DNA from: an uncultured virus (IMG/VR IMGVR_UViG_3300033156_000724)
Taxonomy: Duplodnaviria; Heunggongvirae; Uroviricota; Caudoviricetes
DNA length: 64,000 nucleotides
Direction: 5' to 3' (one strand)
IMG/VR virus record: IMGVR_UViG_3300033156_000724
The notes under the pieces: generated by a model
What the model was told of the DNA's origin: nothing
The model's input: the letters and a program-made list of their open reading frames with translations, nothing else
The model's database searches: none
Translations under genes and position numbers: made by a program
In this document: piece by piece, positions 3,485 to 44,353 of the stretch
Numbering within the stretch: the stretch's first letter is position 1
How the letters are laid out: each line of letters starts with the position of its first letter

Positions 3485-3485
3485 A

Positions 3486-5051: not shown

Positions 5052-5081
5052 CCTTTAACTAACCTGAAAAGGAGTATTATT

Positions 5082-5857: not shown

Positions 5858-5858
5858 T

Positions 5859-12732: not shown

Positions 12733-12738
12733 ATTATA

Positions 12739-16416: not shown

Positions 16417-16418
16417 TT

Positions 16419-18253: not shown

Positions 18254-18255
18254 GA

Positions 18256-19578: not shown

Positions 19579-19581
19579 TAT

Positions 19582-20879: not shown

Positions 20880-21258
20880 TTTTTTTGTATATACCCTTTT
20901 CTTTAATCAGATAATCATTCACCATATCAAATCGAATTTTTTCATCGGTATCGCAAATCATGTCGAGCAGCGTGGCCCACCTATTAGCAACTGCGAACCG
21001 TTTTCGTTCTTCGGACAAAGTGTTTTGAAGCATATGGATTGTTGTATTTAAAGTTTCGGTTCTAAGTTTCAATACCTTGGTTGCTTTTTTATGATCAGGC
21101 ATACTTATAAATACAGAGTAAATCCCGATGCAACAAAAACCCAATATCGCTACGATAGTTGCCAGAATTGCAGCATTCGCAATGAATGTAATTCGTTTTT
21201 TGTAAGTCTCAGCTCTTGTTAAATAGCTCATATTATCATCTCCTTTTCGGCCATTCAA
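20869..21258 (-). CDS. Membrane-anchored hypothetical protein
   Basis: One hydrophobic segment followed by a coiled coil. Confidence 0.5.
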   Translation of the reverse strand: MNGRKGDDNMSYLTRAETYKKRITFIANAAILATIVAILGFCCIGIYSVFISMPDHKKATKVLKLRTETLNTTIHMLQNTLSEERKRFAVANRWATLLDMICDTDEKIRFDMVNDYLIKEKGIYKKNEN

Positions 21259-23296: not shown

Positions 23297-23307
23297 AATG
23301 CTTCAAC

Positions 23308-25461
23308 CTATTTAAGTGGCAATTCAATTTGTTTTTCCTGAACAGACACGGTATATTTCTCTGATTTCAGCTTGGGTTCTGGGTAGAACTCCAAGCTTGG
23401 TGTAATTTCGACCTGTTCGTTGTTGCCATCTAGGTTCAGTTTGATTGTCAAATTTAGATCATAGCCACTTTTCTCAAAAGCTGTAGCGATGTTCTGATGA
23501 TAATTATTAATTAGATTTGCCACTTCTTTTAAAATTTGTTCAATTGTTCTGTCTAAGTTCATGGTTTTCCTCCTCCAATTTCTGTGCCCGTGCTTTCCAT
23601 ATTCTCAATTCCTGTCTTAATTTTAACAACTCAGCTGCTCGATTGCCTATTGTCGCAGCATGATGAATGCCGTAACCGGCAAAAACGATAATCAAAATAG
23701 AGAAAAATGATATTACTATTACCATTATGTCATGGGTTCCCGGCATTTAGACCTCCTTCGCATCCAGAAGACACTCCTCTTCTAATTCTGCGTACATAGT
23801 TTCATAAACATAGTTAGCCATAGCCAGCGGTAAATCAATATTCTGAAATTGTATTTTATTTATCTCCGCCCGCTCTCTACACGGTTCTTCGTGCCTCGAC
23901 CCCGGAATTTCCGGCGCAATCTCATAAAAAACCCTGACCGGAATCTTGATTTCTGTATCAATATAATTCTGCACCATTATTCCCCCCCCAATTTAATTTT
24001 TATCCTCTTTGATCATCTTGTTTAGCTCATCAATGAGCTTTTTTGGTGTCCTGGCACTCCGACACCCTTCTTCTATTTTGATTTTTCTTGTTCGCTTTCT
24101 TTGTTTTTTAATTCGTGCTCCCATATTGTTCATCCTCCTTAAAATAAAATATCCATTACATCAGCGGCGCTCCTGGTGGTATGCTTGTGATCTAAGGAAG
24201 TAATTTCTTTCCTCATAGCAAAAACAACATCACCAAAAGCTTCTATTATTGTTTCTGCAGTAGTGCTATCTGCCGCCATTGCCATAGCACGCCACTTAAT
24301 AAATTTTTCGACTACATCGTCAGAAGCAATAACCATCATATTCAATCCGATTCTTTGCAATTTAATAGCCATTGCTTTCACTTTCCCCTGATTTAATTTC
24401 GAGGATGCAAGCATGTCCATAACCACACCAATAAACTCTGAATACAGCTCTACCTTTTTAGTCTGTGTCATAAATTTCTCCTTTCTTCTTTAATTAGCGA
24501 ACTCCTTCTTCACTATACCATTTCACAAATGTATCTAAGTCCAATCCTTCAACCTCAATCTCCCCAACATCAACAAGCAATGTTGCTGTTGCCCACTCAC
24601 CTTTCATTAAATTGATTTTGACTCCCCGCACTACATTCGAGATATCTATGCCAGTCTCCATATGCTCAACTTTTACATGATCTGATATTGCCACAAACGG
24701 GTGGCTATCAGCAGCCGGCTTCAGTGTTATCTTCAATCCCATACAACCTCCTTACAACTAACGAGAAAATTACTCGCTCTTTTTAGTCATGTGAATTTCA
24801 TAAATGACGGTTCTTCCAACCTTCATGCTCCAAAACTCTGTGATGTTGAATGAAAAAGTTTCATTATCTTAGCTTTGGCCTTATAGTATAGGTTTTCCCT
24901 ATATTACATATAGGGGATGTCTGATTACTAAGGAAATATTCGAATATCCTCATTAGATTTCCTCTTTTTTAATTGATAATTTAGCTGTCGTTTAATAACA
25001 TGCAATGGCCAAAAAGGTTTACCACATTCGTCGCAGCTTATCGAAGCCAACAATCCCGAATGCGCGACACCACAATGGGGACATACTATCGCTCCATGTG
25101 GAAGAATAGCCTGGTATGATTGTTCAGGTGATTGTTTTGATATTTCTGTTTTATCATCACCATTTTCGGTCCCGCTTGATGCACCATCTTTATAGGCACG
25201 CAACAGAGGTTCGGCTGTTTGAAAACTGTTAATCGCTCGAATATTATAAAGACCATATTTCACGCAATACCGCTCGCCAGGACCAACATATTCGCCGCAT
25301 TCCGAACATGGCCCACCTTCAGCCTCAATTTTGAACTCAAGAAGCTCGTGCCAAATAGCACAAGCATCGCATGGATTATCATTCAGTCCCCTGCCTCCGC
25401 ATGAACAATAATTATTGATAATGTTCATTAGCTGGTCTTCGCTTATTATTATCTTATACAT
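23308..25461 (-). CDS. Run of small hypothetical ORFs (23308-23562, 23540-23746, 23747-23977, 24139-24471, 24494-24742, 24928-25461)
   Basis: Co-oriented and tightly packed, mostly with GGAG-type RBS. Confidence 0.55.
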
Positions 25462-25468
25462 TTATACC

Positions 25469-25528
25469 TCCTATCGTTTTTAGTTGGTCTGCACTACTTT
25501 TTGGCGTTAGAGTCCAACGTTGTTGCCA
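25469..25528 (-). repeat. Degenerate attC-like site
   Basis: Similar to the 26279/29091 family (ctttttggcgttagagtc); cores eroded. Confidence 0.5.
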
Positions 25529-25738
25529 CAAACCATTCACGCCACACTTCAGTTATCTGCCAGAACATAGCTCTAATATTTGTAAATATCATGCGAGCAT
25601 TCTTACGTTTGTAATGTTTTACAGCCGACATAAAAAAAGCCAGCGCACCATTGATGTGAAACCACACCAGGAAGTATTTAGCTTTAGGATTTCTCGACAT
25701 TTTCCTAAACACAAGATAATATGTTTTAGTGATAAGAT

Positions 25739-25834
25739 TCATAATGTCTGAACTCACCAGTGGGCAGGAAACTCAAAATGTCGATTTACTCCGATAGCCG
25801 ACCCTGCCCATCTGCGTGCAGCGCCTGGTTATCA
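25739..25834 (-). repeat. Long attC-like site
   Basis: tcataat...tgggcagg/cctgccca inner stem...ggttatc. Confidence 0.7.
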
Positions 25835-26033
25835 AAATATCGTTTTTCAGTTTTCTATTTTGCAATTTTCAATGTCTGATATGGTCCTATGCCAATGTCG
25901 GAATCATAATACATCGGATAAATATACCATCCGTCTGATTCTCGGCATATCCCGCCATATTTCAGATGCGTATACCATCCAGATTCTTCTTTTCTCCATT
26001 CAAAATGACTGCCACTCATAATCTAAATTCCTT

Positions 26034-26091
26034 TTATAACCACATTAGTTTAGCAGGCGGCTATTCGCTCCGCTGGAACGCTTTGTTATGC
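26034..26091 (-). repeat. attC site
   Basis: ttataac...gttatgc, 58 bp imperfect palindrome. Confidence 0.8.
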
Positions 26092-26278
26092 TATCCTCTC
26101 AATCGCCTTAGCTAACGGCAACCATTTCGATACACGTCCCCCACATTTGGCGCATATATATCCGTGATCGTCTGTATACACTTTTCCATATTTTTTACAT
26201 GCGGGGTTGTCCAGGTTGCAATACCTGCCTCCAGGCTTCTCAAATTTTATTTTGTTTTTTTTTCATTTTTTCCTCAAA

Positions 26279-26339
26279 GCATAAAACTTAGCTGACCTGC
26301 GGCTGCTTTTTACCATCAGAGTCGAGCAACTGGTTGTGC
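26279..26339 (-). repeat. attC site
   Basis: gcataaaac ttagctgacc...gtcgagcaactg gttgtgc; ORF 26288-26548 reads into it (HNQLLDSD). Confidence 0.8.
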
Positions 26340-27194
26340 TGTATATGTATATTATCTTCCAAATCCAAGCCACATTTCTTGCAGGAATTGTCAATTCCAT
26401 TATTTACATAGTAATGGGCAAAGGTTTTTTCGAGCAAGCTTATCCTTTTCTCGTTTTTTGTTGGTGTGTCAGGATAGCAAACATGACAAGAAACTTTATA
26501 TTCTGTCCCGCATTTTTTACATATTACACCCATAATTACTCCTTTCACTCGTCGGCCGCCACATTGTTTATAAAAGTTTAAGCTCGTTCGGCCATACTAG
26601 GCATTTATGATTCCCCATATTATATCTTACATCTGGCTTTATATCAGTGTAAATAATATATGCAGCTACATGCTTACTATCTATTGATGATTTTATTATT
26701 TTTTCTACTGTAGCATTACCCAAATAATCATGGACAACCCTATCACCAATTTTAAACTTTTCCGCTTTTTTCATTTTTTTCTTTAAGTTTAGCAATTACA
26801 AGGCCAACGGCATAATCATTAACCCATCTGGGGTCATCCATGAATGCCATGACTGTCGCTCGGTCACGATTAAGATCATACAAAATCCCCTCGGCAGGTT
26901 GTTTTATAAACTCCTCTATGTCTGCCTCTTTTGGTCCGTCCAATGTCATAAAAACAATTTTACCTTCTTTTTCTTTTTGAAGGACCAACTCTTTTAATTT
27001 CTCTTTATCAGTCATGGTTCATCCCCTTATCGCTATCAATTTAACTGAAGAAATATCCTTCACTTTACATGTACAGCTTTGTTGTTTTAAAGAATAAGCG
27101 TCTTCCGCTTGGTTCCATGCCCATGATTGGGCAGGTGGAATCTTAGCTCTTTTACAATATTTCATTTTCCATCGCCATTTGTACATATTTACCC

Positions 27195-27245
27195 CTCTAA
27201 TCAGCCGCCGTGCTCTTTTCGGTCAGCTGCATTGCTTGATTATGC
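27195..27245 (-). repeat. Truncated attC-like site
   Basis: cagccg...cggtcagctgcattgcttgattatgc. Confidence 0.6.
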
Positions 27246-27423
27246 TTTTTAGCAGAAAACCTATGAATATAAGTATCGCCTCCAGTATATGTTATCCTAC
27301 AATCTTCTCTTCGATCTCTGTGCATTGCCCTATGACGTGTAATTCCAAGATAGTGAAAACTTTTTTTACAGGTATGGCAATAACAATTTTTAAACCTCGT
27401 CACTTTCATTTTACCCTTTTGAA

Positions 27424-27478
27424 GCATAACAGATTAAGTCAGCAACGTTTTTCAATCTGCCAGGACAACTGATTATCT
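27424..27478 (-). repeat. attC-like site
   Basis: gcataac...gtcagca/tgccaggac...attatct. Confidence 0.65.
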
Positions 27479-27727
27479 GTCTCATCTTTCACCAATTCTG
27501 GTTTACCGATAAAAAGTGCTGCACTTCTAAAAGCATCAAAACATTGATCATGTACGCCGTCTTCGTCATTGGCCCAAATAATGATTCCTTTCAATAATGC
27601 TTCAATATGGTTTTTAGCTTCTTGTTCCACATTGTAGTGTGGACAGTTAGGGTGATGTTGTGTAAGTAACAACACATTATCACGTGCCCAATTTTTACAT
27701 TCGCAATCTATCATATTGCTCCTTCCC

Positions 27728-27849
27728 CGATAACGATTGAATTAAGCGATACGCCCACAAATCGGGGATACCAAATCATAGCCAAGCGGATCGGGCTTCA
27801 TGTCTTTGCAGCACGGATTTCTCACATCTGCTTTAACGGGTTGGTATCG
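27728..27849 (-). repeat. Long attC-like site
   Basis: cgataac gattgaattaagc...gctttaacgggtt ggtatcg. Confidence 0.6.
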
Positions 27850-28092
27850 CCAACCCGTTTGTGTTTGATACCAATCACACATTCTTGTGTTCCCATAACA
27901 GCGCATGCAAAACTTAGAGTCTATGCCATTGCATATTGGACAACCCTTTTTCCTTTTGTCTTCTGATAATGATTTCATTTTTTACCTGTTTGTTTTTTTT
28001 GTTATACTGTTTTTATATTTTTAAAACTTCTCGCATAAGGCCATGTTTTTCACATATTTCTCGGCACCTTAAAAAATGAGTGGTTAAGTCCA

Positions 28093-28440
28093 TCATTTCT
28101 GTAGCACCATTTCTGTAGCACGGCCGCCTGTAATTTCTTTTGATGTTTTTATTAACATCGCAAGCGTTTCAACAAAATCCTTATTATGCACTTTTTTGCC
28201 AGCTATTAATGCTCCTTCCAACGGCTCTTTATAATCCCGTCCACTGAACACAGGGGTTATACCCGATGTTCTTTGTTGCCAAAGACGGTTAGCTTCCATG
28301 CCGTCTTTTGATATTGGCCCTTGCGCGCCGCATGAAACACATTTTATTGCTTTCCACGGTTTGCCTTTTGTTGTTGATAAAAGTGTTAGTTTCAGATTCT
28401 CGGTTTCTCCGCAAAAAGGACATTTTACCAAATGATCCAC
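28093..28440 (-). CDS. Lar-family (restriction alleviation-like) zinc-ribbon protein reading through an eroded attC
   Basis: KCPFCG...IKCVSCGAQGP...ANRLWQQR; internal ttccaac...gttatac at 28216-28262. Confidence 0.65.
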   Translation of the reverse strand: MDHLVKCPFCGETENLKLTLLSTTKGKPWKAIKCVSCGAQGPISKDGMEANRLWQQRTSGITPVFSGRDYKEPLEGALIAGKKVHNKDFVETLAMLIKTSKEITGGRATEMVLQK

Positions 28441-28457
28441 TTTTTATTTCCTCCAGG

Positions 28458-28516
28458 ATATAATATACTTAGATTAGCCGCCCATTCTTTGAGTCAGATA
28501 GATTTACTTGTTAGTT
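28458..28516 (-). repeat. attC site
   Basis: atataat...gttagtt, 59 bp. Confidence 0.65.
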
Positions 28517-28667
28517 TTTTTGCTTCTTTATAATCATGCCGTAGGCCCACACATCGAACCGTGCCTTTTTGATCTTCTATATATTTTCTTTGGCGATGAG
28601 AATAATCCCCGTAAATCATTTTTCTTATTTTTTTTGATTTCTTGCCATTCATCTTTGTCTCCTTAAA

Positions 28668-28718
28668 AACTAACGTTTAATTAAGCAGCTTTTGTCTGCC
28701 TGAATTTCTTGGTTATGT
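28668..28718 (-). repeat. attC site
   Basis: aactaac...aattaagcag/ctgcctgaatt...gttatgt. Confidence 0.8.
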
Positions 28719-28794
28719 GTCGCCCCCACTCTGGAATCAAACCAGTAGGCTGAAGACTAGGACAGCCAGCCCGCCCATCAGGGATCAGGAGGGC
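28719..28794 (-). ncRNA. ORF-less cassette with tRNA-like fold
   Basis: Minus strand: GCCCUC/GGGGGC terminal stem, CUGG-UUUGAUU-CCAG T-like arm, GGCUG/CAGCC stem; bounded by two attC sites. Confidence 0.4.
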
Positions 28795-28854
28795 ACATAA
28801 CACTAAACTGAGCCGCCGAAGTTTTTATTGATCGCCCCCAGTGACTTGTTGGAA
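28795..28854 (-). repeat. attC site
   Basis: acataac...gttggaa, 60 bp. Confidence 0.8.
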
Positions 28855-29090
28855 GGAAATTTTTGGTATATTAATTTCCTTTATAGTTTTTTTTGCTAAA
28901 TCGATTTCATAAAGATGACCAACATAACTTTCTGGCTCAAAATTAGAAACCGACTGTTCTCTTTCCCAAAGTAAAATTGCTGCCTGTTTTGGCGATGAAA
29001 CAACTTTTTGAGTTACTGGCATATTTTTTATGCCAGTAAAATAATGAGACATTAAAATAATAAATAATAGTATTTTCATAACAAATTTCC

Positions 29091-29151
29091 TTCCAACAAT
29101 TTAGCTGACCGATGCTACTTTTTGGTGTCAGAATCTAGCAGCTTGTTATCT
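29091..29151 (-). repeat. attC site
   Basis: ttccaac aatttagctgacc...tctagcagctt gttatct. Confidence 0.8.
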
Positions 29152-30842
29152 GTCTTCGGTATTTTTACTGTGGGCATAGGAATTCGTGGACATTTAATAG
29201 CTGGTTCCTTGTAATTACATCCCCATCGAACACAATGAGAAGAGCCAAAAATGTCAGCAGTGTCAAAATATAGCCGATGCCCAAAAATTTTACATAATAT
29301 ATTCACAACAAACTCCTTTATGTATGAATCAGCGTTGAGTGTTCATCCGCCGGACCGGCTTGTTAAGTGTTTTATAATTATTAAGTAAAACTGTTGAACA
29401 TTTTGTGCCACGTTGAACACTCGATTGCACGGTAACACCCTCAACAGCTAAATCCCTATCTCGAATAGAGGCTAAAATATGCTCTAATGTCGCGGATATT
29501 ATTAAGGTTCCGTCATTATGGACAAGTTCCGCATAGATGGTATTTGGTCTCAGCTGACCATGTTCGTTTCCATCCATTCTAATATTTTGTAAATGATATA
29601 TTTCCATTTTTTTCTTCTTTCTTTGATTCCGGTGCTATGATTTTAGAATAACGAATATAATTCTCATCAATATTCACTTCCACTATTATAAAACCTGGAA
29701 TAGTAGTTTGAATTATTTTTTTTATCATAGCAGTCTTATCAGTTGACTTTGATCCACTTATTGAGACTGTAATAGTTTTTTCCCAAATATCTTGATTGAT
29801 AATCATAAATTTTGCTTCTATATAATTCAATAGATCCTGAACATCTTTGTTTGGCATGTCCAATTTGGGATTTATTTCTTTTATGTATTCAAAAAAATCA
29901 CGCCTGTCTTCTTCTGTTAAAAAATTCATATTTCCCCCTTTTCCGCTATCCCGACAACATGGAAATCAGCAATCTTCTATCTTTGGTTTTGGCAGATTTC
30001 CAACATTATCTAATTCGGCGGCCAGCTTATGAAAATAAATTGCACACATATCACCGTAATCATCAACAGGACTGCCGTCCTCGTCAAGAATATTACTAAA
30101 TTCTTCCGGGTTTTCGGAGTATCTCCTTGCCCATTCGTTAAAAATAATAGCCATTCTTTTGTGAGTAATGCTTGTTGTTGGTGGTGCCTTTGGCGCATCG
30201 GGCTTTACCGCGTTTGCTGGTCTTACATTACTTGCTTTTTTCATAGTGATTACCTCCAACGATTATTTATTATTAGATTCCCAGTGAGTCACTTCAACAT
30301 AAGCCTCGTCATGTGTATCAATATCCCACATAGGCTTTCCAATTACATCATTCATCCCTAAAAACTCCGCTTCAATTTCTTCTGTAGAAGAAACACTTCC
30401 AAACCGCCAATAATTTACACGGCACCGTGTTTTTTGACCAACGCTGGGCAACTTTTCTTCAACTGAAATCATAATATATCCCTCCGATATTTACCTTTTT
30501 TGTTATATTTTATCCCAAAGCTCATCAGGCAGTCATATATTATTGTCTTTTTTTTCAAAAGCGCTCCCAGCAGTAAAAACAAGCTCAATTTCCTGATCTT
30601 CAATAGACCTTAGAAAGGCTATAGTTTTATATCCTTCTTCTTGCGCTTCAATTTCTCCAGGTAAAATATTTCTATATCGTTCAATTAGATTATCTTTCAT
30701 TTTTACTTTCATACTACCCTCTCTTCAGGATAGATATCTTTTCGTTTCCACTTTTATTGCGCCGTAAAAGTTTACGTGTCATTATATCTTTCCGTCGTAT
30801 GCTTTTTGGCGGCGCCACCTCACATACACGCCGGCTTAAGAA

Positions 30843-30900
30843 GACTAACGTAGAGTTGGAGCTGTAAGCATAACGAATCAGCTGAAACGGTTTGTTATAA
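30843..30900 (-). repeat. attC site
   Basis: gactaac...gagctg/cagctg...gttataa. Confidence 0.75.
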
Positions 30901-31106
30901 ACCCTCATAACGCCAAGGATTCTGTAAACAAATTTGCCACCGACCACCGTTTTTAATTATATTTAACGCTGCTTCTTTAGTTTTTGGATTGTGCTTCAAT
31001 CCTTTAACACTATCAAATCTGTCCAATTTACAATTTATGCCCCTATTAGTATTTATTGGGCCAGAACAAAATTTCTTACAAGGTATCATAATAGCCCCCT
31101 TTGGGT

Positions 31107-31186
31107 TTATAACGTTAAACTGACTTGATCATTTGCAATTTCCGAATTATAATATGCTTGTTATGTGCAAATGTAATTTGTTATGC
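31107..31186 (-). repeat. attC-like site
   Basis: ttataac...catttgca/tgcaaatg...gttatgc. Confidence 0.7.
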
Positions 31187-31315
31187 GGTGTTGACCCTGG
31201 ATCATATTTTTTATTCAACGTTTTCGTGCTGTAGGTAGCATTGACATTATAATGAATGCTCTTACCGATATTTTCATATCAGACCTTCACACTTCCAGCG
31301 ATTTCAAAGAAAGCC

Positions 31316-31362
31316 GCATAACGTTTGCCTTCACCTGACCAGACCGAAAAACTTTGTTATCC
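31316..31362 (-). repeat. Truncated attC-like site
   Basis: gcataac...gttatcc; ccgcataac is complementary to gttatgcgg at 31180. Confidence 0.6.
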
Positions 31363-32017
31363 ACCTGTTAATTTACTGCTGCATCATATCCCCCTGTATA
31401 AATTAACAGAGTCTTCTAAGAACAATCGAACCAGTCGGTGTTTCGTCCCCTGCGGAAGAGTTGTCTTTATTGCGGAAAAAATTTTATTTGCATCTTCATT
31501 GTACAGGGTTTGTGCTTCTTCCAAAGTGTCCGTTTGTGGTAAGTCTGTGTTTATTTCAATCACTATCCCATTGATAGATTCCTCTTTTCTTATCGGGTCT
31601 GCTTTATGTACAATAATTGTATGGTTCATAATTCCTCCGTAAAATAACAATTTTACCTTTTCCCAGTCAGTACACGTCTCAGTATCCTCATGCACATCTT
31701 TTTTGTGCAGTTCACACCATTTCCATTCACCCAACGGGTCGAGTTCGTGGTGTCTATCGCTGCAATGTTTACAATTATTGCAAAACTCTTTCATGTCATA
31801 ACCGCCCGCATCACAGGCTTATCCTATGTGTGTTGCTACTGCCTGATCTGTAATTTAAAATTTTGCGCCGGCATCCTAAAAAGATTTTCAAACATACCTT
31901 GATTTTCAACATCTTTGGGCCATTTCTGAAAATATACCTGTCCTTTTTTGATCATATGTACATGAATAGCTATGCTGTTTCTCTCAATTACCATTCCTGG
32001 TTTTATATTAATCATTT

Positions 32018-32404
32018 TCATTGTAGGCCCCTAACGTCTGGACTCACGGGCGGTGGTCTTTTGCCATCCCCTGGCTTGTTATGTATTTTGCGTAGCATTA
32101 ATTCAAGCCTCGATAACGCATTCCATGCTAAGTGCGCTTGATGCAATAACCCAGAATCTTTGTCTTGATCCTCATGGCGTTCAGCGAGAAGATGACGCCA
32201 GAGTGCGTCTGTGTATCGAATAAAGCCATTCTCTACGCTTTGCCACCCGCCACGAGAGTATTTAATTGCTCCAAAAGTCCCTACTTTGGCAACCTCCGTT
32301 AAGGCTAAAGAAAAATCAGAAAGAACACCTGCAAGGACTTTACCAGCATCCAGCTTTGCGCCTTGTTCGTGTTGATTTAAACCATTTGGATCTTGTTCAT
32401 GCAT
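32018..32404 (-). CDS. dATP/dGTP diphosphohydrolase domain protein (DUF5664-like)
   Basis: GAKLDAGK, FGAIKY..GGW, YTDALWRH, DSGLLH.AHLAWNAL. Confidence 0.8.
   Translation of the reverse strand: MHEQDPNGLNQHEQGAKLDAGKVLAGVLSDFSLALTEVAKVGTFGAIKYSRGGWQSVENGFIRYTDALWRHLLAERHEDQDKDSGLLHQAHLAWNALSRLELMLRKIHNKPGDGKRPPPVSPDVRGLQ
32029..32084 (-). repeat. attC site
   Basis: ccctaac...gttatgt, overlapping the gene 3' end (HNKPGDG). Confidence 0.7.
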
Positions 32405-32418
32405 ATTGTTCCTTTATG

Positions 32419-32479
32419 GTATAACGGTTAAGCTGACTTGCCGCTGCTTTTTGTCGTCAAGTCCAGCGGCTTGTTAGCT
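32419..32479 (-). repeat. Canonical attC site
   Basis: Minus strand AGCTAAC-AAGCC-GCTGGAC...GTCAGC-TTAACC-GTTATAC; L'' is one base longer than L' (extrahelical G). Confidence 0.9.
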
Positions 32480-32648
32480 GCTTTAACCAATGTTTGCATA
32501 TCTTGCTCAATATCTCTTAAGGCAAATACAATTGCAATCCAACCGCAAACAAGCCTTAAAGCCGGGCCATCAAACTCAAACTTCCATCCGCCATATTTCC
32601 CGACACAAAAATAAAAAGTAAACCCATTCATTTTTTATCCTTTCAGCC

Positions 32649-32784
32649 AGCTAACGTCCTAATAACCTGCATGTAGGGCTTGCACACCCCTTAAAAGAGC
32701 ACTCCCACCCATCTTCCCCTGGCAATTATCGACTCTTACCGACAAGCCGACCCTACGCGTCAGAGTTTGTTTGATTGATTATAC
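32649..32784 (-). repeat. Long attC-like element, copy 1 of 3
   Basis: agctaac...gtagggcttg...caagccgaccctac...attatac; near-identical to 33020-33108 and similar to 36296-36382. Confidence 0.75.
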
Positions 32785-33019
32785 GTTTCTGCTTCATCAA
32801 CCCCCGGATCATCTTCTTGACATCATCCATACAGTCTATGTTGAACACACAGCGAGACGATGGCCAAAAGCAGTATTGACGCCATGCTCCATACCACTTG
32901 ATTTGCCCAAGCACGAGACCGGAAGACTTCGATAAAATATTCCATATTTCGGTTTTGCCGGTTTCTCCAACTTTATCAAATTCCATGTAACGGCTTTCAA
33001 TCATGTTCCCTCCTTAGAA

Positions 33020-33108
33020 ATATAACGTCCTAATAACTTGCATGTAGGGCTTGCACACCCCTTAAAAGAGCCCTCCCACCCGTCATCCCCTGGCAATTAT
33101 CGACTCTT
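33020..33108 (-). repeat. Long attC-like element, copy 2 (one arm lost)
   Basis: taacgtcctaataac.tgcatgtagggcttgcacaccccttaaaagagc...ggcaattatcgactctt shared with copy 1. Confidence 0.75.
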
Positions 33109-33262
33109 CCTCAACCTGAACGGTCACGGAAATCGTCAGAGTGTGTGTTTGTGTGCACACTGGACACTTCACATGTTTAATTACTTCCAAACCGAAGCAG
33201 GGCTTAATTTCGACTTCAAAACCCTGCATGCATCTGCCGCATGGGATGATTATTTTATACAC
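33083..33262 (-). CDS. Small zinc-ribbon protein (59 aa, not in the ORF track)
   Basis: GGAGG RBS and GTG start; MYKIIIPCGRC...KCPVCTQ. Confidence 0.55.
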   Translation of the reverse strand: MYKIIIPCGRCMQGFEVEIKPCFGLEVIKHVKCPVCTQTHTLTISVTVQVEEESIIARG

Positions 33263-33560
33263 CTACGCCTCCATTTGTTCACGAATTTTGGGATGAGCAA
33301 CTTTTAAGTGTCAAGTTAAGTACCTAATTACCCTCTATATTGTTATACAAACATATTGCCAAACAAAACCAAAGTACAACAACAAACCAATCACAAACAG
33401 CACTTAAATCTTTTTCAAGCAAATTTATAACAAGATTAGTAAGAGTTATAAATACACATAAAATAATTGCAGATATATATATATTCATATTTTTAAACTT
33501 CTCTGTAAAAAGTTGTGCAGTAGCTGCCTTAAACTCCGTTGTAAGGATTTATTAGCATTC

Positions 33561-34211
33561 CTACCTAAAATCTTTTGCTTTGATTTTGGCAATGACCCGT
33601 TCTCCTCTTCGATTAAACAATTCAACTTTTGGACGCATAACAAGCCCTTCAGGTAACATTTTTCGTAACTTCGATTCGTACCCACCTTTGACCATTGCAA
33701 CACCTTCAAGCAACGTGCCCTCACCAATAACGGGTACTGTCTTAATCATAAGCTTCTCACCGATATCCTTAACGTTGTGATGTTCAAGCCACATACCATT
33801 AATATTCACATCGAAAAGGATAAAACTAACGCCGTTTGAAATGTAATTGCCACCACCTTTTTGGATTTTGGCTCCATAACCTTCACCATACAAACATAAT
33901 GGAGGCAACTCATTAGTTATGAAGATTTCAGGATAAAAAAGTGCAGCAAGTTTATCAAGGAGGAATTTTGGAATATCTGCCCGGTCTGTTTTCCCGGCGA
34001 AAGTAACGTGTTCACCGTTCCACTTCACACGGATATTCGTGCCATCTACTTTCTCGGTAAATATCCATATATTATTCTTGAGATAGTCGAACTCAGGCTT
34101 TGCAAATTGACCTTCCAGTAATGTTTTATGCTTCGTCGCAGGATCACGTAAATATACTGTTTGAATTTTATGATACTCTTTCATTTTGTAATTTCTCCAT
34201 TTGTCAACCAC
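33561..34211 (-). CDS. RNA ligase (Rnl2-like nucleotidyltransferase)
   Basis: Motif I EKVDGTN, YGEGYG, FILFDV, EGLVMRP, AKIK. Confidence 0.85.
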   Translation of the reverse strand: MVDKWRNYKMKEYHKIQTVYLRDPATKHKTLLEGQFAKPEFDYLKNNIWIFTEKVDGTNIRVKWNGEHVTFAGKTDRADIPKFLLDKLAALFYPEIFITNELPPLCLYGEGYGAKIQKGGGNYISNGVSFILFDVNINGMWLEHHNVKDIGEKLMIKTVPVIGEGTLLEGVAMVKGGYESKLRKMLPEGLVMRPKVELFNRRGERVIAKIKAKDFR

Positions 34212-34213
34212 AA

Positions 34214-34684
34214 TTATTTATACAGTATCTCGGTCATTTCTTCATCTGCTGATTTTTTTATCTTTTCCACTCTTTCCTTTAACAACATCTTGGTTTTTTG
34301 TTGTTCTTTTTCATAAATTTCAGCAATTATTTCTTCCTCTGCTAATTTTTCTATCTTTTCCACTCTCGCCTTTAACATTCCTTCTAATAAAATTAGATAA
34401 TTGATAGAATAGCCGATCTTTTTGTCAATCATTGCGTCTGTTAACTTCTCAGGCGAACGATCTGACATTTCAACTAAATCTAACACTGAAACAATATGTT
34501 CTACCCACATACCGACCAGGGCTTTTTCTGGTGTCGTGTCTAATATTCTCGCCGCAATGTTAAAATTATGGTATCTATCACAACCCATCGCATATTCTTT
34601 AGCCTTTTCTGATAATACAGACCGGATTGATTCTATTCGGTCATCCACTATTTCATCAAACTGTGTATCGTATTTCATAAACAC
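34214..34684 (-). CDS. Phage nucleotide-modification-associated (MazG-like fold) protein
   Basis: LSEKAKEYA...DRYHNF...INYLILL. Confidence 0.5.
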   Translation of the reverse strand: MFMKYDTQFDEIVDDRIESIRSVLSEKAKEYAMGCDRYHNFNIAARILDTTPEKALVGMWVEHIVSVLDLVEMSDRSPEKLTDAMIDKKIGYSINYLILLEGMLKARVEKIEKLAEEEIIAEIYEKEQQKTKMLLKERVEKIKKSADEEMTEILYK

Positions 34685-34685
34685 C

Positions 34686-34761
34686 TCCTAACGCAAAGTT
34701 CACTTATCGGAAAGCCGACAAGGATAGTTTTTTGCCGTCAGAGTCGAGCGACTGATTATGC
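34686..34761 (-). repeat. attC site (possibly hybrid)
   Basis: tcctaac...gccgtcagagtcgagcgactg attatgc. Confidence 0.7.
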
Positions 34762-34959
34762 TGTTCCAATACCTTGATTCGCTTCTGTAGCAACATGTTT
34801 TCAGCTTCGAGATTGTTTATTTTAGCTTGTTGTTCATGCCGCTCATTTATTTCCATCTGTCGAGAAATCCATTCACATTCTTTAGGATTAAAACAATCTC
34901 TACCAATTACACCTCCACAACTGTTACATATCATAATCATTTCTCCTTTCCCCAAAAAG

Positions 34960-35014
34960 ACATAATATCTAAGCTGAACCACCGGTATCAGTCGGCTCAA
35001 GCGGCTGGTTAGAT
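34960..35014 (-). repeat. attC site
   Basis: acataat atctaagctga...ctcaagcggctg gttagat. Confidence 0.85.
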
Positions 35015-35226
35015 TTCATCCCCATAATCCTGCATATCACGTTCCCGTTCGGCTAATATGCATTGACTCACATGATAGGAATTATGAAGCTCCGCAAGTA
35101 GCCAATCGGGGGTATATTTAGGATTCACCCTCTTAAGAATTCTTTCAATACTATCTACAACAGATTTTGCCTGAGTCCGATGATACTTTCTTGCTGACTT
35201 TGCTCCCAAAATAACCTCCTTTAAAA

Positions 35227-35286
35227 ATCTAACGTCTTAGCTGACCTGCGGCGACTTTTGGCGTCCGCTCAAGCGGCTGGTTATAT
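35227..35286 (-). repeat. Canonical attC site
   Basis: atctaac gtcttagctga...ggcgac tttt ggcgtcc...tcaagcggctg gttatat. Confidence 0.9.
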
Positions 35287-35817
35287 AGGTAAGTTCACTG
35301 TTGATTTAACTTCATTACCCCAAACATCCCAGCCATCTCGCACTTGCCGTGCAAAGATATCGGCTCTATTCTCAGCTAAAGATTTTATCATCTCATAAAA
35401 TTTATTTGGTTTTTGGGAATGCTTAATATTTGGTGCTGAAAAAGCTAAAGGGATTAACGGTCGTTTTGGCCATAAATCAGGTTTTTCCTTATATCCAACC
35501 AATATGAATTCAACATTCCATCTAAAACCAAACAATGGCATCCCTGCAGATTTACCATAAGTTTTTTTCCATACACCTGTAACAAGGTGACTAAACCCCC
35601 ATGTCTCTAATACCTCTTTAGCATCAAAGAGATGCTTTTGGGTAGCCCACAAGAATAACCAACAATTGTCATCTGCAATACTATCTATAGGCAATGATTT
35701 GATTTGTTCTATGCTCATAGTTTTGTAATCCATTGTCACCTGTTTTGGCCGTACCTTGCGTGTAAGCTTCTTTACTGGCCAGGGAGGATCAACAACAATT
35801 AATCCATATTTTTTCAT
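35281..35817 (-). CDS. MT-A70 family adenine methyltransferase
   Basis: VDPPW, LFLWAT, HSQKP, DIFARQ.RDGWDVWGNE; stop codon lies inside the attC R'' core; start taken at MKKYG. Confidence 0.88.
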   Translation of the reverse strand: MKKYGLIVVDPPWPVKKLTRKVRPKQVTMDYKTMSIEQIKSLPIDSIADDNCWLFLWATQKHLFDAKEVLETWGFSHLVTGVWKKTYGKSAGMPLFGFRWNVEFILVGYKEKPDLWPKRPLIPLAFSAPNIKHSQKPNKFYEMIKSLAENRADIFARQVRDGWDVWGNEVKSTVNLPI

Positions 35818-35839
35818 AAGGTCTCCTATACGAAATGCC

Positions 35840-35897
35840 ATATAACATTTAGTTTAACAGGCAAGCTTTTCCGCTCTGCTGCAATGACTGGTTATAT
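35840..35897 (-). repeat. attC site
   Basis: atataac atttagtttaacagg...gttatat; similar to the 26034 site. Confidence 0.8.
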
Positions 35898-35956
35898 TTT
35901 TCCACTTCAAAATAGCTCTGCAATAGTTGCACACTTTATCCCCTCTACGTTTAGAT

Positions 35957-36015
35957 GAATAATATAAAGCTAACTTGTGCTGTCTTTTGGCGTCAAGTTG
36001 AGCGACTTGTTAGCA
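35957..36015 (-). repeat. attC site
   Basis: aagctaacttg...caagttgagcgactt gttagca; ORF ends ANKSLNLTPK. Confidence 0.8.
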
Positions 36016-36295
36016 ATTTTTGTGAGATCATCTAACACAGATAAATCATTATTTAGAAAGCGCGTGATTATGGTGGCAGGATCAATAGTACAACTATGTA
36101 CTAATTTATCGCTATTGCAATAAGGACAACTTGTCTTATGATCAAAATACGAAGCATGCCATTTTTTACAAGAACGGCAGCAATAGACAAAGGTTACGTG
36201 CATACTATAGTTATATTTCAATTTCATCCTAATAATCCTTTATGGTTATATTAATGATTTGGAAAACTTGAAAACTTCCACAACACCTCCTCCAA

Positions 36296-36382
36296 TAAGG
36301 TTTGCACACCCCTCAGAAAGGCACTCCCACCTGTCTTCCCCTGGCAATTACTGGACCCTACCGACAGCCCAACCCTATACAG
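36296..36382 (-). repeat. Long attC-like element, copy 3 (diverged, array-proximal)
   Basis: ttgcacacccct...cactcccacc..tcttcccctggcaatta...accgaca..c.accct. Confidence 0.65.
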
Positions 36383-36398
36383 TATTCTTTGATTTTAA

Positions 36399-36800
36399 TT
36401 ATAATTTCTCCAAAAAATTAAACTCCTTTAGATTGCTTGAGCAACAATCAATTAGCTCCTGTGTTGTTACAATCCCTCCATCTATACATTTCACCAAATC
36501 TTTTTTTGTTATTCGTTTACCGTATTTATTATAGTTTGCATATATAGTTTGTTTGGATTCAGAAATTCCGAAGTGCTCCCGAATTTCACGCTGTTTCCAT
36601 CTACCTTTTGTTAGCTTAATCATTGCTCTTAATCGTTCTCCTACAAACTTAGTAATTTTTATAAATAGCTCTTCTTTTTCAGAGTCCAGCATTTTCTCTG
36701 GATTTTTCATCATCATGCTCCTCGCTTGGCTGTGGCCCGATTTCTCTGGGAACCCGAAACGCAGAACGTGATGTTCTTTCATGGTTATCAAGAACAACAT
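36399..36800 (-). CDS. Hypothetical protein, possibly HTH (true start probably near 36716)
   Basis: KQREIREHFGISESK HTH-like segment. Confidence 0.45.
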   Translation of the reverse strand: MLFLITMKEHHVLRFGFPEKSGHSQARSMMMKNPEKMLDSEKEELFIKITKFVGERLRAMIKLTKGRWKQREIREHFGISESKQTIYANYNKYGKRITKKDLVKCIDGGIVTTQELIDCCSSNLKEFNFLEKL

Positions 36801-38412
36801 TAAACTTCTGATTTATACATCCCAACCTTCTAATCAAGGTTCCCAATTGTCTTTGTCGTATGTCAGCACCCTTTTTTATTTTAGTCCATAATGAAAAATT
36901 ATCTAAAAATATATACCAACACCCATTATGTATAAACGGCTGCTTATCAATAACAGCCTCATCTAATGTAAGCTTGTTGGAGCTTTCCAGATAATCTTCT
37001 ATCCAATATTTAACCACTCCCTTATCACTAACTTCCTCCCCTATTTCTCGAACATTTTCTTCTGCTAATATTAACAACTGTTGAATATGATTATCCCATT
37101 CTTTTGGTTTAAACCGGGTAATAATTTTACCTGTTGTAGCTGCAATTTTATTTCTAAACTGAGGTTGTGATGTAAAATGTTGGATTTTTAAGGTGATTTC
37201 TTCTACCTTGCCGTTATATTCAATATGAATTACATAATCCGGGTCTTCAGATAAATATTTCTCAATCTTAATAATCTTAACTCCCATCCGGATACTTACA
37301 TCTTTACGTAATTTTTCTGATGGGCTATCTTCTTCAGATGGATTTAATTCCTCAGATAATTGAAGATTTTTAATGTCCTGCTGAATTTCAAATGATTCGG
37401 AAATTGCGTCGTCTCTTGCATTGATAATTGTACGAGCATAATATTGAGTATTATTAAATTTTAGATCATGACCATGATATTCACGATGGGCTATTAAAAG
37501 ATCAACTATTTCTTGCGGTTTCCATTTTGCTCTGGCTGCAAACCCAGCCAGCGCCATATCGTAACCACTTGGGCTAGTATCATTTAAATCTCCTTGCCTC
37601 TGATTTTCCCATGTTGCCTGAAACTTTCCGAATATTGCCCACAACTGCGCGAACTTGGCTGGCGGCGGCTGGCGATTTTTTGCAAGAATAAATCTTTTGC
37701 CAGCCAGATTGATTTTACTCGAATCGGTTGAGCGGTTATCGTTTGTATCGTCAGGCAAAAATTCCTCAAGATCACCAGGATTATACCTCAGATCGTTAAA
37801 TTCTATTATTTTAACAATAACAGGATCTTTCTTGCAATTATAACTCTCCGGGGGCCGTAAGATTCTAACGAGATCTTGGACACTATCAATGCTCCATCCT
37901 TGTTGCATTGCAATAGTGTGAAAACAAAGTTTGATACGACGCAAAAACTTCATTGCACTGATACGATCTTCAGGAGTCTTGAGTTCCCACATTTCTTTGA
38001 ACACCCAATATGCCTGAAGGCCATGCCCAGAATGCACAACCACAGTTGGGTCAAACCCATGACCGTGGATAACGCTCATAGCGTCGTCTAATGTAGGCGG
38101 ATATCTTTTGCTTTTATGATGACCACAAGTTCCAAAATCAATATCAGCAAAGACAGCCGGCAATGCTATTACCGGCCTGCCCTTGCTTTCATCAAGATGA
38201 CAACGTTGATCTTTTTTGTATTTTTTACCCGATAAACCAACCTGAAAATATTGATCTCTCTTTGGGTTTTTTAAAATAAAATCAACAGCCTGATCGATAT
38301 CAGGCGTCCAAAAAGAACTGCCACCCCTTTTCTTCCCGGGTCTCCATATTAACAGGTGTGATCCATCAGGCTTATCATCATAAAGCAACCTGAAAAAATC
38401 ACAAAGATTCAT
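36679..38412 (-). CDS. RepB-type DNA primase / replication protein
   Basis: FADIDF, VVHSGHGLQAYW, RILRPPESYN. Confidence 0.8.
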   Translation of the reverse strand: MNLCDFFRLLYDDKPDGSHLLIWRPGKKRGGSSFWTPDIDQAVDFILKNPKRDQYFQVGLSGKKYKKDQRCHLDESKGRPVIALPAVFADIDFGTCGHHKSKRYPPTLDDAMSVIHGHGFDPTVVVHSGHGLQAYWVFKEMWELKTPEDRISAMKFLRRIKLCFHTIAMQQGWSIDSVQDLVRILRPPESYNCKKDPVIVKIIEFNDLRYNPGDLEEFLPDDTNDNRSTDSSKINLAGKRFILAKNRQPPPAKFAQLWAIFGKFQATWENQRQGDLNDTSPSGYDMALAGFAARAKWKPQEIVDLLIAHREYHGHDLKFNNTQYYARTIINARDDAISESFEIQQDIKNLQLSEELNPSEEDSPSEKLRKDVSIRMGVKIIKIEKYLSEDPDYVIHIEYNGKVEEITLKIQHFTSQPQFRNKIAATTGKIITRFKPKEWDNHIQQLLILAEENVREIGEEVSDKGVVKYWIEDYLESSNKLTLDEAVIDKQPFIHNGCWYIFLDNFSLWTKIKKGADIRQRQLGTLIRRLGCINQKFNVVLDNHERTSRSAFRVPREIGPQPSEEHDDEKSRENAGL

Positions 38413-42525: not shown

Positions 42526-42766
42526 CCTTTTCTTTGCTCCCCCAACATTTGCTTGGAGCATAGTTATACAAAAAGTGTACGTAAGCCGGAATATTTAACA
42601 TATTTTCCTTATCAGCATATCCAACAGCATTGCTTAAATCGTTCTCAAAAACCGCTGTAAGAAAGTTACCGGCCGGGACACCCTTCTCAATATAACGTAC
42701 CAAAGAAGGCCGCATTCTTTTCGGAATTTCGTAGACAACACCAGTATAAACAAATTTAAACTTCAT
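42467..42766 (-). CDS. Conserved-looking phage hypothetical protein
   Basis: GNFLTAVFENDL...APSKCWGS. Confidence 0.6.
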   Translation of the reverse strand: MKFKFVYTGVVYEIPKRMRPSLVRYIEKGVPAGNFLTAVFENDLSNAVGYADKENMLNIPAYVHFLYNYAPSKCWGSKEKVKKWVSEHRKALSGAAQRV

Positions 42767-43682: not shown

Positions 43683-44353
43683 ACTGCTCCACCTCCTATT
43701 TTTACTACAGTATCGGGGTCCGGGCAAATATATCCGTCATAAACCCAAATTTCTTTTCTGGAAAAAACAAAACAATAAACTTGATCGCTCCAGTCTTGCG
43801 CAATCAGATTAATTGCTCTGTAGTCCGGCGAATAAGCATTATGTTTATTTGCTAATTCAACCAAGAGCTTATTACTTTCAGCATGGAATTTATTCCCCCT
43901 TTCCCAAATCTTATCACCCTCAGCCAAAAGCTTATTAGCCTCCATCCAAAGCTCATTTCCCCTATTCCAAAGCTTATCACTTTTCGCCCAAAGCTTGTCC
44001 CCTTCAAGCAAAAACTTGTTACTTTTAGATAGAAATCTTTTTTCGTTATTACCTTTAATTATAAGCCTGTTTCCTTCAGCTTGAAGTTTATTTATTTCAG
44101 CTAAGATTTCGTTTCTTTCAATCCAGAGATTACTACCTTTGTCCCAAAACTTACTTGCTTCATCCCAGCATTCGTTCTCCCTATCCAAAAACTTATTTGC
44201 TTTATCCCACAACTTAAAACTATAGGACGATTCGTCAAATATCTTTTCTGCCAAAGCAATAGCCTGTTTTTCGTTTATGGCTGCTACTCCAACATATATA
44301 CCAGATGCTTCTTTCATAATTTTGTCTCCCCGCGCCGTTGTTTGATTAAACAT
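43679..44353 (-). CDS. Heptad-repeat Trp-rich protein
   Basis: Repeating KLWxxGN / KFWDKGS 7-aa units. Confidence 0.6.
   Translation of the reverse strand: MFNQTTARGDKIMKEASGIYVGVAAINEKQAIALAEKIFDESSYSFKLWDKANKFLDRENECWDEASKFWDKGSNLWIERNEILAEINKLQAEGNRLIIKGNNEKRFLSKSNKFLLEGDKLWAKSDKLWNRGNELWMEANKLLAEGDKIWERGNKFHAESNKLLVELANKHNAYSPDYRAINLIAQDWSDQVYCFVFSRKEIWVYDGYICPDPDTVVKIGGGAV

Follow-up and report, generated by a model that had tools for sequence, protein, structure and literature searches.

An uncultivated tailed phage with a large, partly decayed array of integron cassettes

Results

The DNA analysed here, called the window, is the whole 64 000-nucleotide (nt) stretch of an uncultured virus (IMG/VR record IMGVR_UViG_3300033156_000724), which gene and profile matches (tape measure, tail, terminase-like and replication genes) identify as a tailed phage. 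Within it we followed up positions 28093–35817, which run from the stop codon of an open reading frame (ORF) for a Lar-like protein to the second ATG of an MT-A70 methylase ORF, with all genes on the minus strand. A reading made from the letters alone (the sequence-only reading) had inferred that the cassette cargo of this interval is a shuffleable counter-defence library, in which attC sites may have been attached to phage genes. The array is a large, partly decayed set of integron cassettes in a phage, of a kind that has already been published.

Plus-strand genes at 1–20000 encode the tape measure, tail-assembly, baseplate-hub and tail proteins, and plus-strand genes from 57957 onwards include that for the terminase-like protein. 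A minus-strand block at 21000–54000 encodes a UvrD-type helicase, a primase-polymerase, an SNF2 helicase, a Xer-like tyrosine recombinase, RadC and ParB. An accessory island of small ORFs fills the gap between the primase-polymerase and the UvrD-type helicase of the replication module (Table 1), and positions 28093–35817 lie in this island.

attC-like sites in the window

A repeat of about 60 nt stands at the ends of many island genes, and several ORFs run into the repeat and stop within it. Cleaner copies were found elsewhere, on four IMG/VR contigs, at 17 metagenome loci and on two contigs of metagenome-assembled genomes (MAGs). A covariance model of the repeat, R1, was built from 22 copies with the fold of one of them (L005) as its structure; it replaced a strict R-box/L-box rule scan, which found site a6 alone, and a constrained-energy attC scan, which was unspecific. 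Applied to both strands of the whole window with filters off, R1 gave 13 matches with E ≤ 0.018, the next best having E 0.22. All 13 lie on the minus strand within 25477–36015 and none elsewhere in the window, so that the attC-bearing stretch spans at least 10.5 kb of the island. As a check on specificity, R1 was run on the phage DNA that surrounds 131 viral homologues of the cargo, 622 kb in all, and had no match there.

The short box motifs of the repeat were enriched about fivefold, on the minus strand only. CGTTA[GT] occurs 19 times on the minus strand of the island but only once on its plus strand, the figure for 200 shuffles being 3.6 ± 1.9, and TAAC[AC]AG occurs 11 times, against 2.1 ± 1.3 in shuffles. 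The core boxes follow the consensus yTAAC...GTTAk, in which R'' ends in AAC and R' begins with GTT. Both triplets are kept in seven of the 13 sites; the remaining six have a mutated core or are truncated. In a2 the R box (ATATAAC/GTTATAT) is a perfect 7-bp pair, while a1 has R'' TGCTAAC and a degenerate model-aligned R' (ATTATTC), with an internal GTTAGCT as the alternative. As DNA, a6 folds with −11.2 kcal/mol (z −2.5).

The repeat is an attC

The L005 copy folds into a 7-bp R box (ATATAAC/GTTATAT), an unpaired spacer of 5/6 nt, an L stem and a terminal loop, and its L stem has three bulged bases, all on the 5' arm, which is the geometry of attC. In an alignment of 55 sites from 23 sources, which was fitted to R1 and is therefore biased towards the structure, 84.6% of pair cells were paired, compared with 72.6 ± 0.9% in shuffled alignments; none of 500 shuffles reached 84.6%. 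Changes on both sides of a pair were seen in 146 cells, compared with 59 in shuffles, and controls with the structure slid along the alignment were only 27–39% paired. Compensatory changes occurred in 11 of 13 inner-stem pairs, which exceeds all 500 shuffles and all slid controls.

The junctions between cassettes carry a second signature. Integron integrases make their crossover between the G and the TT of R' (G/TT), and an inserted cassette carries at its start the part of R' that came from its own attC. At 11 of 30 consecutive junctions, R'' is a perfect complement of the R' remainder with which its own cassette opens (four variable positions). When the pairing was permuted, the mean was 2.2 and the maximum nine, with none of 20 000 permutations reaching 11. 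By comparison, R'' complements its own adjacent R' at only three of the 30. The perfect cases among the model-called junctions of the window are the MT-A70 cassette (start GTTATAT, a3 R'' ATATAAC), the 66-residue cassette (GTTAGAT, a4 R'' ATCTAAC) and the 84-residue cassette (GTTGGAA, a10 R'' TTCCAAC), each complementary at 4/4 variable positions; the CxxC/coiled-coil cassette between a4 and a5 pairs at 3/4. Two more were found by eye: R'' of a11 (ACATAAC) complements R' of a10 (GTTATGT) at 4/4 across a unit of about 130 nt, and the box GTTAGCT that ends copy a of the D2 repeat described below complements R'' of a6 (AGCTAAC) at 4/4, giving a 67-residue cassette.

Furthermore, the same family of sites is found beside integron integrase genes. 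R1 sites lie on the cassette side of intI (profile TIGR02249) in four of the five genomes examined (G154, G156, G045 and G143), as arrays in three of them and as a single site in G143; the intI of G154 is split and falls below the cut-off. The array of G156 (L210, contig C38) lies downstream of intI on the same strand, unlike the usual divergent arrangement. The Desulfobacteraceae MAG G002, which has one clean repeat copy, has three intI genes above the cut-off. On its contig C41 (L153, 1067–2671), a remnant of intI (residues 1–54 fused to 295–316) is turned towards two cassettes, both closed by R1 sites, and the locus represents a decayed integron. Across genomes, R1 matched in 57 of 151 sampled members of the order Desulfobacterales and in one of 101 from an archaeal phylum. 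The repeat is thus a real attC type, of a family used by Desulfobacterales-order integrons.

Two other occurrences of the family were noted. The one archaeal MAG (G003; L006) has three copies on small contigs, with none in 100 other genomes of its phylum, and both mis-binning and transfer are possible. A 45-kb metagenome contig of 26% G+C (L032) has one strong copy; it also encodes Rpb1-/Rpb2-like RNA polymerase domains, a DNA ligase and exonucleases, and has the look of a large phage.

No integron integrase in the phage

The TIGR02249 profile found no integron integrase in the window or in G001, a near-identical IMG/VR record. The Xer-like tyrosine recombinase of the window was considered for this role and rejected, since it fails the TIGR02249 model (Table 1); against Desulfobacteraceae IntI it scored 28.9 bits in BLASTP. 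A related phage that is free of attC (G008) also has tyrosine recombinases, and four other attC-bearing phage records, one of them 100% complete, have none. There is no link between the attC sites and a phage recombinase. By the test for a complete integron (intI, attI and the cassette promoter, Pc, at the array head) the array falls short, and its head abuts the phage primase region. Thirteen co-oriented attC-like sites and no integron integrase in the window make this a cluster of attC sites lacking integron integrase (CALIN) in a phage.

The island and its phage

G001 (59.8 kb) is the same phage as the window (99.3–100% identity, small indels only). One related phage was found via its primase (L001/G008), the homologue being 72% identical. 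In this relative the homologues of the primase and the helicase (67%) overlap directly at 11686–11689, whereas in the window the two genes are 13.4 kb apart. Only one of the 38 island ORFs queried (31384–31794) has a homologue at the L001 locus, and the relative, a complete record of 92 kb, has no R1 match. GenBank phages gave no match to the region (megablast) or to the terminase-like protein (tblastn). Base composition is uninformative on the origin of the island: its G+C content is 38.2%, that of the rest of the phage 38.9% and that of host arrays 37–49%. ARAGORN and Rfam found no tRNA gene or Rfam family in the window, including an Rfam scan of 23000–37000 at E ≤ 1.

Outside the island, a 13-bp unit (ATCCAAGATATCT-like) is repeated in tandem about 14 times at 55201–55390, between ParB (53415–54335) and a LuxR/sigma-like ORF (55634–56572). 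With ParB as neighbour, these repeats may be iterons or a partition site, which would point to a possible plasmid-like prophage lifestyle and hence to long residence with a host integrase. A 53-nt inverted repeat (52570–52622/52854–52906, 81% complementary, 231-nt spacer) lies upstream of the RadC/processivity-factor block.

Cargo of the cassettes

The 24 scanned ORFs of positions 28093–35817 include six with a Pfam or PHROG family: MT-A70, the ligase, dGTP_diPhyd_N, the Lar-like protein, DUF1660 and phrog_6802. Their coordinates and scores are collected in Table 1.

The MT-A70 assignment of the sequence-only reading was borne out. The match to PF05063 covers profile positions 1–172 of 172, the DPPW motif is read in 'VVDPPWP', PADLOC reports MTase_II (E 6.7e-39) and PDB matches are to MT-A70/METTL3 (E 5e-14). 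The gene forms a single-gene cassette from a2 to a3.

The ligase, which had been called Rnl2-like, has the nucleotidyltransferase domain of that family, with the lysine motif KxDG read as KVDGTN in a protein of 207–216 residues; it lacks the Rnl2-specific C-terminal domain, only positions 2–233 of 341 of phrog_548 being matched. It is bounded by attC on neither side and shares a 2.2-kb interval with five other ORFs. The cargo families had been held plausibly able to counter anticodon nucleases or restriction. The T4 Pnkp-Rnl1 tRNA repair system acts against the anticodon nuclease PrrC, and Rnl2 itself is not known to have a proven part in counter-defence. An end-healing kinase-phosphatase was absent from the 85 ORFs scanned with Pfam (26 + 43 + 16; ORFs below 120 residues outside the island excluded). 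With a nucleotidyltransferase domain only and no healing partner among the scanned ORFs, anticodon-nuclease repair is not supported as stated.

The protein that had been read as a DUF5664-like dATP/dGTP diphosphohydrolase does have the corresponding PF18909 domain (dGTP_diPhyd_N, formerly DUF5664), which is predicted to be a MazG-like nucleotide pyrophosphohydrolase domain. It consists of this one domain, matching positions 92–190 of 476 of phrog_801, rather than a full-length enzyme. An adenylosuccinate-synthetase-like ORF was sought among the same 85 and none was found; the pathway partners of MazZ-like dATP/dGTP diphosphohydrolases are the 2-aminoadenine genes. The gene is a single-gene cassette from a6 to a7. 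Its viral homologues stop matching by residue 118 of the 128 of the query in 27 of 28 cases, and at 121 in one; the C-terminal tail beyond is encoded by the diverged a7. The PDB sequence search gave no match for this protein or for the ligase.

The Lar-like protein matches phrog_599 (E 3.5e-5) and falls below both curated cut-offs, that of PF14354 (Table 1) and that of NCBIfam anti_R_Lar (34.3 against 39.6); the match involves the N-terminal 58 of its 115 residues. No recognised attC directly follows the gene, which lies in a 2.4-kb interval with eight other ORFs. Zinc-ribbon proteins had also been reported, and paired CxxC motifs are indeed present in the translations of 28093–28440, 31384–31794, 33083–33262 and 34704–35000. 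Atlas matches of the 156-residue phrog_6802 protein are viral clusters, one of which (0.91) has DUF1599 on 13% of its members; as a lead only, the protein is possibly MazG/DUF1599-like.

Among the named families, only MT-A70 and dGTP_diPhyd_N are single-gene units. The ligase, the Lar-like gene and most zinc-ribbon ORFs lie in longer, multi-gene intervals, whose internal sites were lost or never present.

Table 1. Features of the window, with positions counted from its first letter
Feature	Position	Strand	Details
UvrD-type helicase	21236–23296	−	replication module, one island flank
Accessory island, about 41 small ORFs	23297–36678 (13.4 kb)	−	primase-polymerase/UvrD-type helicase gap
a14, truncated	25477–25519	−	R1 19.9 bits, E 1.3e-3; model positions 12–55 only
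a13, with insertion	25738–25834	−	R1 26 bits, E 8.1e-6; R' core ATT
a12, outside 28093–35817	26278–26339	−	R1 67 bits, E 1.2e-20; R' core TTT
Lar-like zinc-ribbon protein, 115 residues	28093–28440	−	PF14354 27.9 bits, cut-off 28.6
a11, weak, not among the 13	28667–28718	−	R1 E 0.8 only
a10	28794–28854	−	R1 29.2 bits, E 5.5e-7; after 84-residue ORF 28825–29079
a9	29090–29151	−	R1 48.3 bits, E 6.5e-14; overlaps 3' end of DUF1660 ORF
DUF1660 ORF	29115–29306	−	22.8 bits, cut-off 21.4
DUF551 ORF, weak	30263–30472	−	19.7 bits, cut-off 22
a8, attC remnant, 34 nt	30867–30900	−	R1 16.8 bits, E 0.018
dGTP_diPhyd_N (formerly DUF5664), MazG/MazZ-like domain	32018–32404	−	PF18909 77.8 bits, cut-off 27, residues 13–106
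a7, diverged	32028–32084	−	R1 21.1 bits, E 4.7e-4; within 3' end of dGTP_diPhyd_N ORF
a6	32418–32479	−	R1 67.7 bits, E 6.2e-21; overlaps 3' end of 67-residue ORF 32428–32631
D2 copy a	32652–32737	−	ends in R' box GTTAGCT, start of 67-residue cassette
D2 copy b	33023–33108	−	ends in R'-type box GTTATAT
RNA ligase	33561–34211, probable start 34184	−	PF09414 63 bits, cut-off 27; phrog_548
156-residue phage protein, phrog_6802	34214–34684	−	PHROG E 5.4e-29, family of no assigned function
a5	34685–34761	−	R1 36.9 bits, E 8.9e-10; R'' core mutated to AAT
CxxC + coiled-coil ORF	34704–35000	−	98 residues, or 78 from ATG 34940; a4 to a5
a4	34959–35014	−	R1 37.3 bits, E 6.5e-10; R' core mutated to ATT
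66-residue ORF, no family	35009–35209	−	single-gene cassette, a3 to a4
a3	35226–35286	−	R1 55.9 bits, E 1.2e-16; R'' box contains MT-A70 stop TAA
MT-A70 N6-adenine methyltransferase	35281–35841, probable start 35817	−	PF05063 99.6 bits, cut-off 23.9
a2	35839–35897	−	R1 27.3 bits, E 2.6e-6; immediately upstream of MT-A70
a1	35956–36015	−	R1 47.5 bits, E 1.3e-13; after 85-residue zinc-ribbon ORF 35970–36227
Primase-polymerase	36679–38412	−	replication module, other island flank
Xer-like tyrosine recombinase	42756–43727	−	TIGR02249 41.9 bits, cut-off 265; profile positions 10–179 only

Two further elements of the island were noted. D2 is an 86-nt G-rich repeat with four G-runs, present three times on the minus strand (32652–32737, 33023–33108 and 36274–36359). 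The two copies that end in R'-type boxes are 95% identical, each box being preceded by an attC-core-like ACTCTGACG motif; the third, at the array head, has no such box. Possible readings of D2 are an extended form of attC and an element inserted into attC sites. It was considered as a structured RNA and dropped, its RNA fold being not above shuffles and without a match in Rfam. Positions 28690–28825 (minus strand) have a cloverleaf-like fold with a T-arm-like hairpin (CTGGTTTGATTCCAG), the closing stem of which is the R' box of a10 paired with the R'' box of a11. As a tRNA or structured RNA this candidate was likewise rejected (none by ARAGORN; fold z +0.5, not above shuffles). The unit closed by a11 has no credible gene (a 40-residue ORF, 28681–28803, only), and the segment is read as a cassette without one.

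Homologues of the cargo

The families had been called typical of phage accessory regions, and their being typical of phages was confirmed by 159 relatives of MT-A70, 23 of the ligase and 28 of dGTP_diPhyd_N in IMG/VR; the Lar-like protein of the window, used as query, found none there. At viral loci homologous to MT-A70, ligase and dGTP_diPhyd_N, this attC family was present in none of 131. That result fits the proposal that attC was attached to phage genes, and also the capture of phage genes into cassettes elsewhere. Among 151 genomes of the host order, nine have MT-A70 homologues, with identities no higher than 36%, and attC lies near one of ten such loci. In these samples the closest homologues of the cargo were not mostly host integron cassettes: in 283 kb of sampled host-order arrays only one of 41 island proteins had a match (MT-A70, 33% identity). 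The closest relatives of MT-A70 (62–82% identical) are in metagenome protein clusters without usable names or context. Whether genes passed from phage to cassette pool or the other way is not readable from these data, and the array does not settle the origin of integron cassettes.

Sister arrays with the same attC family

On a phage-like metagenome contig (L022, 3642–3851), two attC sites of the same family enclose a single-gene cassette for a protein with the Acb2/Tad1 hairpin. The protein reaches 66 bits (cut-off 27), has an Acb2 homologue in PDB (E 1.1e-4) and its cassette shows own-pairing at 4/4. Acb2/Tad1 is a validated family of anti-CBASS (cyclic-oligonucleotide-based antiphage signalling system) and anti-Thoeris sponges. 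A second contig (L019, 7989–9388) has N6_N4 methylase and Dam cassettes in tandem, each ending in attC, and a third (L004) has a Lar gene above the cut-off (38 bits) and DUF551. DUF1660-like and PAPS-reductase ORFs are also carried by sister phage-like contigs. On bacterial and archaeal MAG contigs with the family, the genes include a toxin–antitoxin pair, DUF4145, DruA and a large N6 methylase (type IIG-like).

Mobility and decay of the array

Other contigs were compared for cassette differences. The 85-residue cassette of the window recurs in L025 at 64% identity, with its own attC and different neighbours. L024 differs from L019 by the absence of exactly the N6_N4-methylase cassette; a stretch of about 50 identical bases contains the junction, 65 nt from a contig end, so that homologous recombination or an assembly artefact fits equally. 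No difference at the level of cassettes was seen between the window and the second assembly, G001. In one metagenome contig other island DNA is joined to the 66-residue cassette at 35233, the G of the a3 R' box; this is a hint only, from a single contig of depth 5. Two other contig joints (34759/35967 and 36005/29142) were not counted, since they fall within copies of the repeat and their sides are short. A marine metagenome contig, about 91% identical, skips 27832–31659 (3.8 kb including the Lar-like gene). Two sequencing runs (Logan contigs) hold 6–7% of sampled words, and their depths and uncovered parts are not used as evidence. In its present state the array appears to be less a library under active shuffling than a fixed accessory region that was once built from cassettes.

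Discussion

We put the probability that positions 28093–35817 lie inside a CALIN carried by an uncultivated tailed phage at roughly 0.7. The integron claim of the sequence-only reading was upheld by the 13 co-oriented sites, by the occurrence of their family beside intI and by the G/TT junctions. The key steps by which such an array could arise and work are as follows. Circular cassettes would have been inserted one by one by an integron integrase of the host acting in trans. Its substrate would be the folded single-stranded DNA of attC, with the crossover at G/TT. The cassettes would be read by the leftward transcription common to the flanking replication genes, each probably with its own ribosome-binding site just after the R' box.

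Several results count against the phage CALIN or its proposed cargo. The structural statistics come from the alignment fitted to R1, and covariation in the first alignment of 22 near-identical copies gave no signal. As single-stranded DNA the window copies fold poorly, with z from +0.7 to −2.5 and mostly not above shuffles. The share of the window in the own-pairing signature is small, perfect pairing being seen at only three of its ten model-called junctions and the two found by eye. Next to the three intact intI genes of G002, R1 detects no sites. The 3.8-kb variant has its breakpoints (27831/31660) inside two zinc-ribbon ORFs and not at attC sites. As to the cargo, the ligase has no end-healing partner among the scanned ORFs, and 18 of the 24 ORFs scanned in positions 28093–35817 have no Pfam or PHROG family at the cut-offs applied. 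The recognisable cargo is therefore a minority, and 'counter-defence' rests on two to four genes.

For these few genes, family membership gives some guidance. Orphan phage methylases and Lar are established anti-restriction functions. As a DNA adenine methylase, MT-A70 would hide restriction sites from cleavage; it is likely to act in counter-restriction, and for the Lar-like gene this is plausible. Such a role is credible for a few cassettes. The sister arrays provide the best support for a counter-defence theme: in phage contigs, sites of this attC family border genes for Acb2/Tad1, Lar, Dam and an N6_N4 methylase, which makes this reading plausible.

The alternative that survives best accepts the cassettes and holds that their cargo is ordinary early-gene or nucleotide-metabolism equipment with no special anti-defence role, the cassette format being incidental. 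It draws on the position of the island inside the replication module, on dGTP_diPhyd_N and the ligase being nucleic-acid enzymes with no proven anti-defence role, on the missing healing partner, on the sub-threshold Lar-like score, on the many ORFs without family and on PADLOC, which finds no defence protein besides the MT-A70 methylase. Set against this are the established anti-restriction functions just named and the presence in sister arrays of Acb2/Tad1, two more methylases and a supra-threshold Lar. We regard this explanation as possible, though doubtful.

Somewhat less probable, and in our view unlikely, is the earlier proposal in full: that the array is an actively shuffled counter-defence library, exchanged among phages, in which attC was attached to genes of phage origin. 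Seven sites retain both AAC and GTT. The 66-residue cassette stands in another context in one contig, with the break at the G of R', the 85-residue cassette stands with its own attC among other neighbours in another array, and L019 and L024 differ by exactly one methylase cassette. Relatives of the cargo are abundant in viral contigs free of attC, and the sampled host-order arrays hold a homologue of a single island protein. However, the two assemblies of the phage are identical at the cassette level, the L019/L024 junction has the ambiguity described above, the 3.8-kb variant breaks inside ORFs and the direction between phage and cassette pool cannot be read. With about half of the sites decayed (six of 13), weak folds and no integron integrase, the word 'shuffleable' goes beyond the findings.

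The weakest alternative, that the repeats belong to the phage itself as intergenic elements with a chance likeness to attC (terminators, hairpins with a regulatory role or recombination hot spots, the last having been proposed for modular shuffling in T4-type phages), would fit their place at gene ends just before ribosome-binding sites, the conservation of the window copies in sequence rather than fold and the lack of an integron integrase in the window, but it is largely refuted and very improbable, given that the same family is arrayed next to intI in bacterial chromosomes, that the G/TT own-pairing signature is specific to integrase-made junctions, that the closest relative phage has no copy at all and that the island shows no excess of terminator-like sites (17, with 12.5 ± 3.6 expected).

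Returning to the phage CALIN, a wider and tentative view may be drawn from it. Phages of integron-rich anaerobes might plug into the integrons of their hosts, with one attC family and integrase set moving defence cassettes from one bacterial chromosome to another and counter-defence cassettes from phage to phage. The counter-defence cassettes so moved could conceivably be the methylases, Lar and the Acb2/Tad1 sponge. Integrons would then perhaps serve as an exchange platform shared by both sides of the arms race, with phage genes as one source of new cassettes; we offer this too as speculation. The array and its relatives provide a concrete set of cassettes and sites for asking whether integrons also serve phages.

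It was only in 2023 that arrays of attC sites were reported in phages, the material being a small number of isolates. Qi, Rajabal, Ghaly, Tetu and Gillings (Front Microbiol 2023; PMC9892861) described 17 phage CALINs with five methylase cassettes, found that phage attC sites were recombined by IntI1 and suggested (section 3.4) that phage cassettes help to overcome host defence. As far as the parts of that paper drawn on here describe them, their CALINs resemble the window in being attC arrays without intI, in temperate and virulent phages, with mostly co-oriented cassettes and methyltransferase cargo. The differences, within the same parts, are of size, setting and content. Theirs were reported with a minimum of two sites each, whereas the window has 13 model-called sites over 10.5 kb; its array interrupts a replication module and has many decayed sites; its site family is traceable to the integrons of one bacterial order; and its methylase, MT-A70, is outside the three families they list. 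A full-text literature search (titles and abstract openings, with the supplements of PMC9892861 outside its scope) returned no Acb2/Tad1 cassette and no phage array of this size. The window adds a large, order-linked example and the junction signature of integrase-made insertions, and in other phage contigs its site family is found beside Acb2/Tad1 and DNA methylases of three kinds.

The AntiDefenseFinder survey (PMC11370490) lists integrons among the carriers of anti-defence genes in bacteria. The island is like the anti-defence islands treated there in that small genes of this kind cluster in phage accessory regions; the cassettes of the survey are in bacterial genomes, and the part of it used here describes no attC arrays inside phages. 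Compared with T4, the window ligase has the nucleotidyltransferase domain of the Rnl2 family (PF09414) and lacks the C-terminal domain (phrog_548 positions 234–341 unmatched), and the scanned ORFs have no end-healing kinase-phosphatase, unlike the Pnkp-Rnl1 system.

Sedentary chromosomal integrons have been described as stores of anti-phage defence cassettes (bioRxiv 10.1101/2024.07.02.601686). The likeness lies in the recombination platform, in attC-bounded, promoterless single-gene units and in cargo from the conflict between phage and bacterium; the bacterial contigs that share the attC family of the window carry such genes themselves (toxin–antitoxin, DUF4145, DruA and the type IIG-like methylase). 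Those arrays lie beside intI and Pc and encode defence, whereas that of the window is viral, lacks an integrase and carries genes that are candidates for counter-defence. Should it be active, it would mirror, on the side of the virus, the defence 'biobanks' that chromosomal integrons form.

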